Below are positions 357 through 5,002 of a stretch of DNA of 39,748 nucleotides, piece after piece. The notes under the pieces were generated by a model that did no database searches, was not told where the DNA came from, and worked only from the letters and a program-made list of their open reading frames with translations. Numbering within the stretch: the stretch's first letter is position 1; each line of letters begins with the position of its first letter. The DNA lies in the NCBI GenBank assembly GCA_050011075.1, contig JBEKJT010000001.1:1-39748 (forward strand). Direction: 5' to 3'. Source of the stretch: Thermoplasmata archaeon. Its GTDB lineage: Archaea; Thermoplasmatota; Thermoplasmata; Lutacidiplasmatales; UBA184. The position numbers were made by a program, and so were the translations under genes.

Positions 357-1487
357 CTAGGTTTGAGGAATCTTTCCACTCCGCACGAAAAGCATCGGTT
401 CCCGGGGACGCTCAGTTGGAATCCTCGAGCTCCGACGAATCGGTCGCTGCGGGACCACTTGGACCTTTCTCACACGGTCTTCCGCCGCACGGCAGTACTT
501 CTCGCTCTGGTCAAAATGGACGAAGTGGCGATTGTTCGCCTTCGCAACGGCAGCAACCGTGCCGGTTCCTCCGAATGGATCCATGATTGTGTTCCCGCGA
601 TAGGTAAAGAAGAGGACTAACCTTCGGATGAGTTCCTCGGGAAACGTCGCGGGGTGGTTGACCAATCTCCGGGTGTCCGGAGGTATCTCCCATACTCCAT
701 CCGACCAGTCCCGAAACTCCTCCGGAGAGATGTCAATCGTGCTGGGGTCGCCCTCGAGTTTCCAACTTTCCTTGTGGAAGACCTCAATGTACTCCCACGA
801 TGGGATGACGTGTGGGTGGCGAGGACTCTTCCAGCTGCCCCAAGCGGTGCGGGGCGCGCTCATATTCTGTTTTGCCCACAGAATCTCGGCCCGATGAGTG
901 AACTTCGCCGCGCGGATATCCCGTGACAAGTCATGGTGGAGGGGCACGAACTCCGCGATTCCAGTCGGGGCGACTTCGAGAGCAAGTCTCCCGCCGCGCT
1001 TCAGTACGCGGAAGCATTCCTTCCAGACCTCGCTCAACCAGAGGCGGTACTCCGAGTACTGGCGTCTGTCGTCGTAATCCGAGTACTCGATTCCCACGTT
1101 GTACGGCGGCGACGTAATCACCATGTGGACCGAATTGCTCGGCACCTTTCGTATCTCCTCGAGAACGTCGCCGCAAGTGATTCGATCGAGCGACCCGAAC
1201 TTTGTGGAAGTGAGAGTTCGTGACTCGGGCTCGGTAACTATTGGAGACGCTGCAGGGCGCAACACAATAGAGTCATCGTCGATATGCGAGGTGAGTCGCT
1301 TTCCGACATACCAAGAGAGCTCCTCCACCTGGCCCTTGGGCAGGATGGCATAGAAGGAGCCATAGTCCGTCCGATCGCTGTGAGATCCAGTCTTCAGTCG
1401 GGTCTTCCAACTGAGGGTCACCGGCTGCTCGCCGGCGACATAGGGCTTCTGGGGCTCCTTCTCCATCGCGCGCTCCGAGAAGGTCAC
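357..1487 (-). CDS. DNA methyltransferase, beta-class N4-cytosine/N6-adenine type (PF01555-like), with an extra ~110-aa N-terminal AbrB/SpoVT-like domain
   Basis: Catalytic motif IV 'VITSPPYNVG' lies upstream of the AdoMet motif I 'IMDPFGGTGTVAAVA' near the C-terminus, which is the beta-class order. The start is GTG 1487 or ATG 1466 (MEKEPQ). The N-terminal 'FYAILPKGQVEELSWYVGKRLTSHIDDDSIVLRP' resembles a swapped-hairpin AbrB domain. Confidence 0.85.
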   Translation of the reverse strand: MTFSERAMEKEPQKPYVAGEQPVTLSWKTRLKTGSHSDRTDYGSFYAILPKGQVEELSWYVGKRLTSHIDDDSIVLRPAASPIVTEPESRTLTSTKFGSLDRITCGDVLEEIRKVPSNSVHMVITSPPYNVGIEYSDYDDRRQYSEYRLWLSEVWKECFRVLKRGGRLALEVAPTGIAEFVPLHHDLSRDIRAAKFTHRAEILWAKQNMSAPRTAWGSWKSPRHPHVIPSWEYIEVFHKESWKLEGDPSTIDISPEEFRDWSDGVWEIPPDTRRLVNHPATFPEELIRRLVLFFTYRGNTIMDPFGGTGTVAAVAKANNRHFVHFDQSEKYCRAAEDRVRKVQVVPQRPIRRSSRIPTERPREPMLFVRSGKIPQT

Positions 1488-1557
1488 CGGCTATAGCTCT
1501 TGAGGTACCCCAGGCTGAAACGGTTAGAGGTGCCTGCGCTTCACCGAGGGCGGCACC

Positions 1558-2484
1558 TCAAAACTTGCCGGTCGCAAGCGCATCGTCAAGAGCGTCAAGC
1601 AACACGTGGAGGCACCGAAGGCAGAGACCCTCGACGTCTATGCGGAAATACGTGCGGATGCGCCCCTTCTCTGCCTCTAGGCTCTGAGCCGAATAGAGAT
1701 CGAGCCGGCGTGCGCTTGGTTTCCACTTCCTCAGGGACTTGAGCGAGCGGAGCATCAACGCGAGGGTAATCCTGTCCTTCTCACTCAATTCGTGGCTGTG
1801 GAACAGTGGAGCGCGATAGGCGATCTCTCGCTCGGCGAGTTCAACCACCCGGCCGTCTAAGGTTAGGTCTACGCCGGGGGTCTTCCTGACTACGTCTCCA
1901 AGGACCTCCAATACCGTGCGCAGAAGGTTTCCTGCCTCACTTGGATAGAGAAGAACCACGTTCAACGGAACGAGGACTCCGAACCAGATCGACCCAGGGT
2001 GCCTGTATAGAATCACGGAACCGGTGGGCAGATGGGCCTCCGGGAATCGGCGGGTCAGCTCCTGTTCAAGATTTGCCGCCTCTTCTTCTGTGACGTGCTT
2101 CTCGACTCGGGGGGAGACAAGTTCACCGAAATACCGATCACGGAGAGCCGCGGCGTCCTGCTGCAGCTCGGCAGGCCGGTCTCTGTACTTGTCGAACACG
2201 CGAATCGTTTCGCGACCGACGTTCGCCAAGCCGCGTCCCGGCTGCTTCAGCGTGAAGATGTTGCCCAGGTGCTGGGAAATCGCTCCGGGGGTTCGGCCCA
2301 GGAGGTCAGCGAGCTCGCGGACCCAAGGGGCCTCTGGACGGTAATTCTGTGTGTCGGGCGGGCACGCCGCGAGAACTAGGGTGACTTCCTCCGCGGTCCA
2401 AAGCTCGCGGTCCCTGGCGGGCGCTCCGGCCCGCGGACGCCGGGTTGCTCCCTTGGGGTTCCCTGTATCGCCGCCTTCATGCAT
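1558..2484 (-). CDS. Hypothetical protein: N-terminal module as in COG3183-type HNH restriction enzymes, followed by an unrecognised ~180-aa C-terminal domain with no HNH motif
   Basis: 308-aa ORF with an ATG start, in an operon with the methyltransferase. 'LWTAEEVTLVLAA...LLGRTPGAISQHLGNIFTLKQPGRGLANVGRETIRVFDKY' follows the W-T-x-EE / GRTPxA..KLxNF..LDP..G..GLxN pattern I know from the N-termini of HNH 'putative restriction endonucleases'. No HNH or PD-(D/E)xK motif is evident afterwards. Confidence 0.6.
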   Translation of the reverse strand: MHEGGDTGNPKGATRRPRAGAPARDRELWTAEEVTLVLAACPPDTQNYRPEAPWVRELADLLGRTPGAISQHLGNIFTLKQPGRGLANVGRETIRVFDKYRDRPAELQQDAAALRDRYFGELVSPRVEKHVTEEEAANLEQELTRRFPEAHLPTGSVILYRHPGSIWFGVLVPLNVVLLYPSEAGNLLRTVLEVLGDVVRKTPGVDLTLDGRVVELAEREIAYRAPLFHSHELSEKDRITLALMLRSLKSLRKWKPSARRLDLYSAQSLEAEKGRIRTYFRIDVEGLCLRCLHVLLDALDDALATGKF

Positions 2485-2511: not shown

Positions 2512-3105
2512 TTACCGGCCTGGGTTCTTCTCGACCGAAACCAGCGGGTGCTCCTTCTTCCAGTACTCGAGCATCATTAGTGATAAGACCCTGATTTGAA
2601 ACAGACTCGGCTCACAGCGCAGCCCCGCAGGTTGGACATCGCATCCCCCCGGCCCGGCGGCTCCTGTCGGCACGAGCGAGCCGCAATGCGCGCAGTGCAA
2701 GAACGATTGGACCGGAGCCGCCACTGAAGGCGCCGCTACGTTGACCACAACATGGCCGTAATGATCAGCCATCGGTCGAACCTGCTGCCGAGCTCGAGAG
2801 ATCGCGGAGACCCACTCCTCCACGTCCTTCACCTTGTAAATGTGGCCTTGACCAGCAGCCTCGACCCGTAAGGTCGCACGCCCAATGAGCGGCTTGTCCC
2901 TGTGCAGGTTCGAAATCAGATCAAGCCGGACGTCCAGGAATGTCACAAGCTTCTCTCCTCGAACAAGTTCGGTCACGATTCTCTGTTTCTTCCTTCCTTC
3001 GAACACGAGTCGGACCGACGTCAGGGTCAAGATGCCATTGCGGCCCGAGCCACTTTCCGTTCGCTCGGAAAGAATCGTGGCCTCGCCGGGGCCGAGCAGC
3101 GGCAC
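2512..3105 (-). CDS. PH/GRAM-like (bacterial PH-type) domain protein with a degenerate C-terminal Cys-rich segment
   Basis: 'GEATILSERTESGSGRNGILTLTSVRLVFEG...ATLRVEAAGQGHIYKVKDVEEWVSAI' has the bPH/GRAM pattern, followed by 'CAHCGS...GGC...LRC'. The track ORF starts at GTG 3150, but an in-frame GTG at 3105 lies 2 nt after the RHH stop, so I prefer it. Confidence 0.5.
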   Translation of the reverse strand: MPLLGPGEATILSERTESGSGRNGILTLTSVRLVFEGRKKQRIVTELVRGEKLVTFLDVRLDLISNLHRDKPLIGRATLRVEAAGQGHIYKVKDVEEWVSAISRARQQVRPMADHYGHVVVNVAAPSVAAPVQSFLHCAHCGSLVPTGAAGPGGCDVQPAGLRCEPSLFQIRVLSLMMLEYWKKEHPLVSVEKNPGR

Positions 3106-3107
3106 TG

Positions 3108-3263
3108 TCAGGTGCTCCGGGGTGCAAGCGGCGGGTGCTCCTTCTTCCACCGCTCAAGCTTTTCCCGCACGGCCTGTTCGATAAACGCCTGACGGTTCGA
3201 CCAGCCTTCGCTCTCGGCGACCTCGACAATCTGGTCTATGAGAACTTTCGGCAGACGGACCAT
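3108..3263 (-). CDS. CopG/Arc/MetJ-type ribbon-helix-helix DNA-binding protein (51 aa)
   Basis: 'MVRLPKVLIDQIVEVAESEGWSNRQAFIEQAVREKLE' is a classic RHH beta-strand plus two helices. I use the internal ATG at 3263 of track ORF 3108..3428. It is the first gene of the minus-strand cargo operon. Confidence 0.7.
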   Translation of the reverse strand: MVRLPKVLIDQIVEVAESEGWSNRQAFIEQAVREKLERWKKEHPPLAPRST

Positions 3264-3382
3264 AACGGGAGTCCTCTCAGTGGTCTGCTTCTTCCCGGCC
3301 ACGTATCCGAATGCCCCCCCGGGATAGAATCGTTGATATAACAAGGAATCATATGATATCAATAGAAACCTGGTGCATCTTA
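3264..3382. promoter_or_regulatory. A/T-rich divergent control region with inverted repeat TTGATAT-N16-ATATCAA (3333-3339 / 3356-3362)
   Basis: This is the most A/T-rich stretch of the window. It lies between the divergent RHH operon and the integrase operon, contains TATA-like runs (gatataa, atatgatatcaatag), and has a 7-bp inverted repeat suitable as an RHH operator. Confidence 0.35.
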
Positions 3383-3586
3383 ATGACAGCAATGACAAGG
3401 CGCAGTGCGATCTGGACTGACAGGGCAACTGCTCGCGCGTACGTAGAACTTGCGGCCGAGCTCTATAAAGGCAGGGAGATTGAGCGCGAGTCGGCCGGTG
3501 AGGCTGCCAGATTCCTGCTCAGCAAGTTCCGCGTCGAGCGCTCGTCCGTGGCAGTCTCGAGGGCGACGGCGAGGGCGTCCGCATGA
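3383..3586 (+). CDS. Small hypothetical protein (first gene of the integrase operon; start uncertain)
   Basis: ATG at 3383 (MTAMTRRSAIW...) within track ORF 3311..3586. Its stop overlaps the next start (ATGA at 3583-3586). Confidence 0.4.
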   Translation: MTAMTRRSAIWTDRATARAYVELAAELYKGREIERESAGEAARFLLSKFRVERSSVAVSRATARASA

Positions 3587-3828: not shown

Positions 3829-4007
3829 TGCGAGCGGGTCCCCCGTACGGCCCGTTCGTCACCGCCTCCGATCTCCTAAATGACGAGGTCGCGTCGGTCA
3901 CGGACCCGGTCCGCCTGGTTGGTCGGATTCACCAGATCGAAAACCGCGTGCGCGAGCTTGAGGTCGAACACCGGCACCTTCTCCTCAGCCTCGCGACTCG
4001 GCTGTGA
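3828..4007 (+). CDS. 59-aa hypothetical helical protein, below the ORF-track length cutoff
   Basis: My translation is MRAGPPYGPFVTASDLLNDEVASVTDPVRLVGRIHQIENRVRELEVEHRHLLLSLATRL*. Its ATG shares the A of the preceding TGA, and its TGA overlaps the integrase GTG (GTGA at 4004-4007). Confidence 0.4.
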   Translation: MRAGPPYGPFVTASDLLNDEVASVTDPVRLVGRIHQIENRVRELEVEHRHLLLSLATRL

Positions 4008-5002
4008 CCGACTCAGCGGGGACGTCCGCGGACCGGCATCCCCTGGTCCCGAACGGTCGCTTGGAGGACTTCAGGTCGTGGCAGATCGCGCTCGACCATG
4101 CCCTCAGCACCGCGAACAAGAGCGTGAGGTACCTCCGCTTCCTCGAGAGCAAGGGTCTCGATCTCGCGCCGCCCGCGCTCTCCTACGACCGCGCCCTCGG
4201 GTTCATGGCCGAATGGCGGCAGCGCGGGGTGAAGCCCCGGACTCTAAATTCGTGGGTTCGCGAGCTCAACCTCTGGAGTCGGTTCCTGAATCTCGGTTGG
4301 AAGTTGCCGTACTTCCGCCGTCGGTCGGGGCCACCAATCCAGGTTCCCGACCGCGTCCTCGTCTCGAAACTCCTCGGCCTCGCCTACCCGTCCCCGGCGA
4401 CACAGGCTCGCAACCGCGCCATGATCGCGGTCTTCGCGGACGTCGGAATTCGCAGGAACGAACTCGTCAACCTCCAGCTCTCGGACCGCATCCAGCTCGC
4501 GTCGGGCCCGGGGCTCCGGGTCCGCTTCGGAAAGGGCGAGAACGAGCGCGACGTCCCGCTCGACCTCGAGGTCTCTGAGCTGCTAGAACGGTACGTCTCA
4601 ACCTACCGATCGCACTCCCACGCGACTCGCCTGTTTACGACCCAGGTGGGGCCACTGTCATATGGCTACGTCGGAAAGGTCGTGCAGGAAGCCGGAGCCC
4701 GTCTCGGAGCCCCATGGCTGTCATGCCACAAACTGCGTCACTTCGTCGCCGACGTCACGCTCGATGCCGGGATGCCGGTCTCCTCGGTCGCCGAGATCCT
4801 CGGACACAAGCGATGGGAGACGACCCAGCTGTACCGCCAACGCCGGCTCCAGAAAATCCGCGCTGAGGCGGACTTCCGGTCTACTGCTAAATCACGGTCC
4901 ATCTTCGGAGGGAAAATGGGGCAAATCCGACCGAGACTTGAACGGAAAGCGGGAGCCGGCGACGAATCACGCGCGGAGAGGAGTGGGAGCACGGGGATTT
5001 GA
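4004..5002 (+). CDS. Tyrosine recombinase / phage-type integrase
   Basis: Arg-I context 'VGIRRNELVNLQLSD', 'CHKLRHFVA' (H-x-x-R) and 'LGHKRWETTQLY' (catalytic Tyr), with an N-terminal SAM-like domain. The 3' end overlaps the tRNA-Trp 3' end. Confidence 0.9.
   Translation: MTDSAGTSADRHPLVPNGRLEDFRSWQIALDHALSTANKSVRYLRFLESKGLDLAPPALSYDRALGFMAEWRQRGVKPRTLNSWVRELNLWSRFLNLGWKLPYFRRRSGPPIQVPDRVLVSKLLGLAYPSPATQARNRAMIAVFADVGIRRNELVNLQLSDRIQLASGPGLRVRFGKGENERDVPLDLEVSELLERYVSTYRSHSHATRLFTTQVGPLSYGYVGKVVQEAGARLGAPWLSCHKLRHFVADVTLDAGMPVSSVAEILGHKRWETTQLYRQRRLQKIRAEADFRSTAKSRSIFGGKMGQIRPRLERKAGAGDESRAERSGSTGI

Follow-up and report, generated by a model that had tools for sequence, protein, structure and literature searches.

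The window analysed here is a stretch of 39,748 nucleotides (nt) from a Thermoplasmata archaeon (assembly GCA_050011075.1, contig JBEKJT010000001.1, positions 1 to 39,748 of the forward strand). Towards its left end, a gene of the minus strand, here called gene X, is followed by a DNA methyltransferase gene, and a palindrome-rich control region lies between the two (Table 1). X was invariably found upstream of this one methylase in 12 loci and may therefore represent a novel type of restriction or control protein. The protein has two parts, an uncatalogued helix-turn-helix module and a family-specific ferredoxin-like and helical domain. The initial annotation had described X as the N-terminal module of a restriction enzyme lacking its HNH nuclease, with a sensor or recognition module coupled to a new effector or adaptor domain. 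The most informative context was absent from it, namely the obligate downstream methyltransferase and a promoter studded with GGTACC.

Table 1. Positions in the window of gene X, the methylase gene and the features within and between them (aa, amino acids; ORF, open reading frame; pLDDT, predicted local distance difference test).
Feature	Position	Strand	Description and basis
Gene X	1558..2484	minus	308 aa; methylase-associated protein; ORF and translation, relatives
N-terminal module of X	2128..2421	minus	aa ~22–119, five helices; homologous to the N-terminus of HNH_2 nucleases; without Pfam model
Helix-turn-helix core of the module	2245..2328	minus	aa 53–80 (ELADLLGRTPGAISQHLGN); weak HTH_38/HTH_5 matches, conservation table, model
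Ferredoxin-like beta-alpha-beta-beta-alpha-beta unit of X	1882..2112	minus	aa 125–201; AlphaFold secondary structure, conservation
Helical bundle of X	1570..1878	minus	aa 203–305; contains H229 and C288-x-x-C291; pLDDT 81–97
Control region between X and the methylase	1482..1557	minus	palindrome-rich, with TATA-like box
GGCACC	1529–1534		control region; from sequence
GGTACC	1504–1509		control region; from sequence
TATA-like CTATAG	1491–1496		control region; ATG at 1464–1466 lies ~27 nt beyond
GGTGACC	1482–1488		control region; from sequence
Partner DNA methyltransferase	357..1487	minus	ORF of 376 aa; beta-class, N6_N4 type, TSPPYNV and FGGTGT motifs
AbrB/MazE (SpoVT)-like N-terminal domain of the methylase	1233..1418	minus	LSWKTR...GSFYAILPKGQVEEL...IVLRP

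Gene X is a real gene. Both peptides quoted in the initial annotation were found in the translation of the ORF, and 13 full-length relatives (51–65% identity) were conserved over the whole length. The profile of these relatives was searched against 1.84 billion cluster representatives and matched 170 proteins at E ≤ 1e-3, about 40 of which were full-length relatives with identities down to ~20%. Two alignment-based word-index searches added few members, and no relative was found in viral contigs, plasmids or phage records. Two database proteins, P0013 (254 aa; locus L002, 7776–8765) and P0126 (239 aa; locus L040, 236–1159), were N-terminally truncated gene calls. A complete module was encoded in frame upstream of both, and thus no family member examined truly lacks the module.

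X was followed on the same strand by the orthologous methylase in the window and in L001–L005, L009, L013/L014, L016/L017, L037, L039 and L040. In the 11 loci other than the window, identities were 48–77% for the methylase and 20–65% for X. The order, the strand and a spacing of 70–90 nt were retained in all 12 loci despite differing flanks, in which integrase, transposase, GmrSD, Mrr, Eco57I-like and D5 primase genes were found. The pairing of X with the methylase is conserved over deep divergence. The 212-aa ORF, the ribbon-helix-helix gene and the integrase that accompany the pair in the window had no counterparts in the other loci; since no other genes were shared, the cassette consists of X and the methylase only. 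In the window it lies beside a tyrosine integrase gene in a stretch of 58–65% guanine plus cytosine (GC), and the GC content is ~70% elsewhere. The hosts were archaea: L004 and P0126 came from metagenome-assembled genomes of Thermoplasmata, and L002 carries genes for archaeal RNA polymerase, L7Ae and NusA. The locus is best read as a small, horizontally mobile, two-gene cassette occurring mainly in Thermoplasmata archaea.

The proposed likeness of the N-terminus of X to HNH proteins was recovered by profile methods. In a profile-profile comparison (hhalign), the X family was aligned with 15 HNH_2 proteins over 98 columns (probability 99.1%, E 6.6e-19), and the alignment spanned X aa 22–119 and stopped at 119. 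Judging by this alignment, the resemblance is true homology and not chance. More than 100 proteins matched the X-family profile only at positions ~20–110. Among 105 such module-only matches, Pfam content comprised HNH_2 (PF13391) in 30, protein kinase in 4, DUF4268 and NOV_C in 2 each, and MTaX1 and a helicase C domain in 1 each, and 47 of the proteins were no longer than 160 aa. The specificity for restriction enzymes that had been supposed for the module is therefore not supported. It was all-helical and wingless in the AlphaFold model of X (helices at aa 31–40, 53–62, 66–80, 91–100 and 104–119). The Pfam search of X gave weak matches to HTH_38 and HTH_5 at aa 55–73; across the module-bearing proteins, matches to HTH_38, HTH_5, Myb and wHTH were weak but recurrent. 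R64, in the helix-turn-helix core, was invariant (33/33), and the recognition helix was conserved throughout the superfamily. The PADLOC model 'HNH' touched aa 48–108 weakly (E 0.02). No Pfam model covered the module in the searches of X and of the module-bearing proteins, and no solved structure of it was found in the PDB, which the fusion proteins matched via their HNH part only; the nearest entries to these HNH_2 domains were VcaM4I (6yex, E 4.8e-16) and TagI. No similarity to SRA, EVE/PUA, DpnI-type winged-helix or HARE-HTH sensors was seen. The module is a promiscuous domain of ~95 aa, predicted from its helix-turn-helix to bind DNA.

Some module-bearing proteins had neighbours of interest. 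In Neisseria gonorrhoeae (NZ_CP119142.1, 370365–379081; L121), pheS and pheT are separated by a gene for Vsr, a C5 methylase truncated to a fragment of 133 aa, and an intact module-HNH_2 protein (249 aa). This chromosome is entered as a plasmid in PLSDB and carries no annotation there. R.NmeDI (351 aa) was considered as this Neisseria protein and rejected, being a different protein. Vsr homologues were present in 6 of 16 loci encoding module-HNH_2 proteins (L034, L025, L027, L028, L029 and L036), several of which may share the synteny of one lineage. Two neighbour pairs of 372 and 150 aa were rejected as C5 methylase plus Vsr, since they were a dehydrogenase and a cytochrome c. In L034 (2970–4217), two overlapping ORFs of 97 and 162 aa encode the module and the HNH domain, respectively, and adjoin Vsr, a MutH/Sau3AI-like gene and a NucS_C-like gene. 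Genes for HATPase_c_3 (Hsp90/MORC-like ATPase) were seen near X in two unrelated loci (L001, 6030–7724; L007, 1–1615). Three module-bearing proteins matched the Pfam model 'wHTH-Hsp90_Na associated' weakly, and a tie to these ATPase neighbours may be coincidental.

The C-terminal half (aa 120–308) had been said to show no HNH, PD-(D/E)xK or other recognisable motif, which held: searches of Pfam, NCBIfam, PADLOC and PHROGs were empty, both for this half alone and across 28 diverse members. PF13391 and PF01844 gave no match in X even at E up to 1, and none in the 28 domains. The first AlphaFold model of X was built from 13 close sequences (pLDDT 73.5), and a Foldseek search with it was empty; the second was built from 18 more diverse sequences (pLDDT 84.5, predicted template modelling score 0.80). 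Structure prediction and Foldseek assigned no known nuclease fold or other fold to this half. The ferredoxin-like unit of the model comprised strand 126–130, helix 133–150, strands 158–161 and 167–171, helix 174–195 and a short further strand. When conserved residues were mapped across 37 diverse members, R126 (35/35) and E128 (34/35), both in strand 1, were near-invariant, as was G169 (34/37) in the hairpin Y160...G164-S165...G169; R115 (35/35) precedes this half in the last helix of the module. Common among the members were Y/F160, G164, S/T165, C288 and C291. The two cysteines were retained or lost jointly in the family alignment, and position 229 was occupied by H, D or E in all 28 members having both, an indication that (H/D/E)229, C288 and C291, conserved in part of the family, may form a metal site.

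Several fold assignments were tried for this half. For a PD-(D/E)xK core, the predicted strands PRVEK, ILYR and IWFGV had no conserved acidic/lysine pattern, and Foldseek gave no match to such enzymes. GIY-YIG was dropped, since Y160 is F in 7 of the 37 members and the strand order differs. A HEPN Rx4-6H motif was dropped because R224 and H229 are not conserved, and HUH and beta-beta-alpha-Me folds because the hairpin has no conserved His. As far as these searches reach, the C-terminal domain is found only in this archaeal family and has no known relative.

The methylase matched PF01555 (3.5e-40) and PADLOC MTase_II (2.8e-63), and its true start is probably the ATG of Table 1. The nearest solved structures were 2zie and the N4-cytosine methylases 8s9n and 8s9m, and the enzyme is a beta-class (SPPY) methylase, probably of the N4-cytosine type. 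The catalytic motifs are intact, TSPPYNV and FGGTGT being invariant in the 12 orthologues. An N-terminal domain of ~70 aa was conserved in all 12 (invariant W27, K28, R30, G43, S44 and P50); it matched PF04014 (MazE_antitoxin, AbrB/SpoVT type) in 3 of the 12, at best with 3.7e-6, and a precomputed weak match to an AbrB/MazE-like domain was on record for the methylase of L037. As a negative control, 80 viral methylase homologues (≤41% identity) were inspected, and these lacked the AbrB domain, X and GGTACC arrays.

Every methylase-linked locus had two to four perfect GGTACC palindromes in the 70–130 nt past the X stop codon, usually 24–25 base pairs (bp) apart. Altogether, 28 GGTACC were counted in 12 × 150 nt versus 0.19 per kb elsewhere in the same loci (~83-fold, Poisson P ~1e-43). 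In the alignment of 11 loci, an invariant GGT(A/G)CC stood directly 5' of a TATA-like box, which was ~27 nt before the methylase start codon, and further GGTACC sites followed either in the stretch from the TATA box to the start or within the initial codons. No arrays were found at methylase-less X loci or at loci encoding module-HNH_2 proteins, and no GGTACC was found upstream of X itself, where a shared motif was sought by eye only. As the arrays occurred only with the cassette methylase and not with the module or the viral homologues, they belong to the methylase. They are predicted to be its recognition site, the operator of its AbrB domain, or both, and its promoter is predicted to be of the leaderless type, with the TATA box bracketed by GGTACC palindromes. 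Literature searches for a GGTACC methylome with N4-methylcytosine (m4C) in archaea gave nothing useful.

Two smaller features were noted in the same region. In most loci, a second conserved element, CGTT(T/G)CA, preceded the invariant GGTACC by 5–7 nt (window 1516–1522; control regions of the window, L002–L005, L037 and L039 aligned) and would form with it a putative composite operator. A 14-nt direct repeat, GA(G/A)GGTCACCGGCT, was found at 1413–1426 and 1479–1492 of the window and contains GGTCACC, that is, GGTACC with one additional base. The GTG that opens the methylase ORF overlaps with one copy, and the second sits 66 nt into the coding region; both may be further operator copies.

Eight loci carried X without an adjacent methylase (L006–L008, L010–L012, L015 and L018). 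Their proteins of ~325 aa formed essentially one clade and adjoined AIPR, GmrSD, SLFN-type helicase or Eco57I-like genes. (H/D/E)229, C288, C291, Y160 and G169 were lost in all eight of these proteins and kept in all 12 methylase-linked ones.

X is tentatively read as the restriction or effector partner in a small mobile, restriction-modification-like cassette of Thermoplasmata archaea, an interpretation to which we give somewhat less than an even chance. Four lines of evidence lead to it: the deep and exclusive synteny with the methylase in a mobile cassette; the same module standing ahead of nuclease-type domains elsewhere (HNH_2, DUF4268, NOV_C); the AbrB/MazE-like domain and GGTACC arrays of the methylase, which can thus regulate itself and does not require X as a regulator; and the fact that the X proteins of methylase-less loci have lost the putative metal site. 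In the proposed mechanism, GGTACC would serve as the system's recognition sequence or, failing that, as the methylase operator, and the methylase would throttle its own promoter after accumulating. X would bind DNA via the helix-turn-helix module, and its C-terminal domain, in the place held by the HNH domain in relatives, would act on unmodified DNA via the R126-x-E128 strand and the (H/D/E)229/C288/C291 site. The more specific proposal is that this domain could be a new catalytic type of restriction enzyme, beside PD-(D/E)xK, HNH, GIY-YIG, PLD and half-pipe. Its catalytic parts would be the R126-x-E128 strand and the (H/D/E)/CxxC metal site; it would be brought to DNA by a module that bacteria pair with HNH and be held in check by an AbrB-fused m4C methylase reading GGTACC in its own promoter. 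As a whole, this proposal is unlikely.

Confidence in the restriction or effector partner stays at this level because no catalytic site or nuclease fold could be demonstrated and no avoidance of GGTACC was seen, and several results weigh against it. No nuclease fold or motif was found in the C-terminal half in Pfam, NCBIfam, PADLOC, PHROGs, PDB or Foldseek searches. Profile comparison of this half with PDB sequences gave nothing, and Foldseek with the better model gave nothing beyond E 0.25 in the PDB, with generic ferredoxin/ACT-like hits, and at best 0.26 in BFVD. E128 was the sole near-invariant acidic residue. GGTACC occurred 10 times in the window, where 5.8 ± 2.3 were expected, and 26 times over the 12 loci, where 21–38 were expected; the cassette, however, sits on a recently acquired island, and under-representation of the site is a supportive, not an obligatory, trait of Type II systems. 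A recognition helix conserved throughout the superfamily looks unlike a determinant of sequence specificity. The correlation of triad loss with methylase absence rests on essentially one clade, and the persistence of that branch in defence islands implies that X-like proteins can work without the methylase.

Of the other explanations, the one closest in plausibility, though still improbable, casts X as a transcription factor: a large functional analogue of controller proteins, it would bind the control region and set methylase expression, and the cassette would be a regulated orphan methylase. Its ferredoxin-like (ACT/RAM-like) domain would mediate oligomerisation or sense a ligand, like its counterpart in Lrp-type regulators of archaea. 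The canonical helix-turn-helix, the weak match of the beta-alpha-beta-beta-alpha-beta unit to ACT/ferredoxin-like folds, the position of X directly upstream of an elaborate operator-like promoter and the paucity of conserved polar residues in the C-terminal domain are all consistent with a regulator, and the module-bearing proteins of ≤160 aa have the size of plain DNA-binding proteins. The GGTACC arrays, however, track the methylase and not the module, the methylase already has a DNA-binding domain of its own, and elsewhere the fusion partners of the module are nucleases and kinases, not regulator domains that bind ligands. The searches returned neither Lrp/AsnC nor any other regulator family.

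A quite improbable alternative makes X a non-catalytic reader or adaptor of methylation state: the module would sense modification of the methylase's sites, and the C-terminal domain would relay it, perhaps through recruitment or blockage of other factors or with the methylase as its target. Under this reading, the HNH_2 fusions would be Type IV-like counterparts. Modification-dependent enzymes typically have no adjacent methylase (Helbrecht et al. 2024, PMC11037411), and module-HNH_2 loci mostly lack one too, but the Vsr or C5 methylase neighbours seen in some of these loci are explained just as well by ordinary restriction-modification. VcaM4I and TagI, both modification-dependent, are the enzymes nearest to the HNH_2 domains of the fusions, the conserved recognition helix suggests a common ligand, and methylase-less X adjoins GmrSD and AIPR genes. 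MTaX1, to which one module protein is fused, is potentially involved in discriminating modified DNA, according to Aravind and co-workers (PMC10853773). Against this reading, the module is unlike the established sensors listed above, and the output domain is of no known type. That the adjacency is functionally meaningless, X being an unrelated mobile-element gene hitch-hiking with the methylase, would agree with the one X clade that occurs without it, but is hardly credible given the constant order, strand and spacing in 12 loci whose flanks differ and whose X proteins have diverged to ~20% identity. The initial annotation stood as to a shared module coupled to a new domain; its labels 'sensor' and 'effector' were left unsupported by the canonical helix-turn-helix and the few conserved C-terminal residues.

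The X family was compared with several known systems. The HNH_2 (PF13391) putative restriction endonucleases of ~250–290 aa (e.g., P0057–P0162, the Hymenobacter yonginensis plasmid protein WP_270129552.1 and the Neisseria gonorrhoeae pheS-pheT protein) share with X the ~95-aa N-terminal module, with the pattern W-T-x-E-E...L-Y...E-L-A-x-L-G-R-T-P-x-A-V-x-x-K-L-x-N...G-L, and also reside in restriction or defence neighbourhoods. Unlike them, X has no HNH_2 beta-beta-alpha-metal nuclease domain (H-I-x-P-W ... N-G-L), and unlike most of them it is tied to one particular methyltransferase; lacking the defining nuclease domain, it is not a member of that family.

PvuII and BamHI (m4C) are Type II cassettes with beta-class amino-methyltransferases, and KpnI and Acc65I recognise GGTACC. 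The X cassette resembles Type II restriction-modification in being a mobile pair of same-strand genes with an SPPY methylase nearest to N4-cytosine methylases, in the faster evolution of the methylase's partner, and in having a 6-bp palindrome tied to it. It differs in that X has no PD-(D/E)xK, HNH, GIY-YIG, PLD or half-pipe domain, no avoidance of GGTACC was seen, and GGTACC as its recognition sequence is a prediction from the promoter arrays. Methylases that repress themselves include M.SsoII and M.Ecl18kI, by an N-terminal helix-turn-helix, and CfrBI has its recognition site in its own promoter. The cassette methylase likewise has an extra N-terminal DNA-binding domain and a promoter packed with a short palindrome; this domain, however, is of the AbrB/MazE type and not a helix-turn-helix, and the promoter is archaeal (TATA box, leaderless spacing), all as predicted from sequence. 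Controller proteins (~80–100 aa, Xre-type helix-turn-helix, palindromic C-boxes upstream) differ from X, which has 308 aa, no Xre-type Pfam match and no upstream GGTACC. With Lrp/AsnC regulators (helix-turn-helix plus beta-alpha-beta-beta-alpha-beta RAM), X shares the layout only, a helix-turn-helix, a linker helix and a ferredoxin-like unit. Unlike them, it has an extra helical bundle of 100 aa and lies in a mobile cassette, not a metabolic operon; no match to AsnC_trans_reg or HTH_AsnC was found in X or in the 28 C-terminal domains, and Foldseek gave generic ferredoxin-like hits only (E 0.25 or worse). The layout of an N-terminal DNA-reading domain and a C-terminal effector is shared with VcaM4I (EVE-HNH, 6yex), TagI (SRA-HNH, 6ghs) and the winged-helix (wH)-HNH enzymes (PMC11037411). 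In contrast to these, the X module is not EVE/PUA, SRA or a DpnI-type winged helix, no nuclease is present, and a methylase is adjacent. As to Type IV enzymes, no sensor or nuclease family was matched in X, and only the divergent methylase-less clade shares their genomic context.

The cassette thus resembles a restriction-modification system, but its partner domain and its control layout are both new. The X family defines a widespread, uncatalogued ~95-aa DNA-binding module that heads many proteins annotated as 'HNH endonuclease' and has been recombined with kinases, nuclease-type domains and a new domain. The C-terminal domain of X is well placed as a candidate novel effector or restriction domain, in a minimal, readily cloned two-gene cassette. 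The control design is archaeal, with an AbrB/MazE-fused methylase and a TATA box bracketed by 6-bp palindromes, and predicts GGTACC as the recognition site. To our knowledge, little is known experimentally about restriction-modification in Thermoplasmata.

The surroundings of the cassette in the window were also inspected. Positions 1 to ~5000 have a low GC content and hold the methylase, X, the 212-aa ORF (2512–3150, minus strand), the ribbon-helix-helix gene (3108–3428) and a XerA-like tyrosine integrase gene (4004–5002, plus strand). This segment looks like an integrated element whose left end lies beyond the window, in which no tRNA gene was detected. The 212-aa ORF has a Cys-rich C-terminal stretch (CAHCGS...GGCD...LRCE). 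Searches of Pfam, NCBIfam, PADLOC and PHROGs with this ORF were empty, and none of the fetched loci contained a homologue. The ORF is bracketed by a 34-nt direct repeat (2539–2572 and 3126–3159, 82% identity), whose core is an exact 17-mer, TGGAAGAAGGAGCACCC (minus strand), and which encodes an identical WKKEHP tail on the ribbon-helix-helix gene and on the 212-aa ORF. The same 17-mer was found in L003 (3107–3123), 38 nt upstream of X. Taken together, the bracketing repeat and the L003 copy suggest that the 212-aa gene may have been inserted, or a segment duplicated, between the upstream small gene and X.

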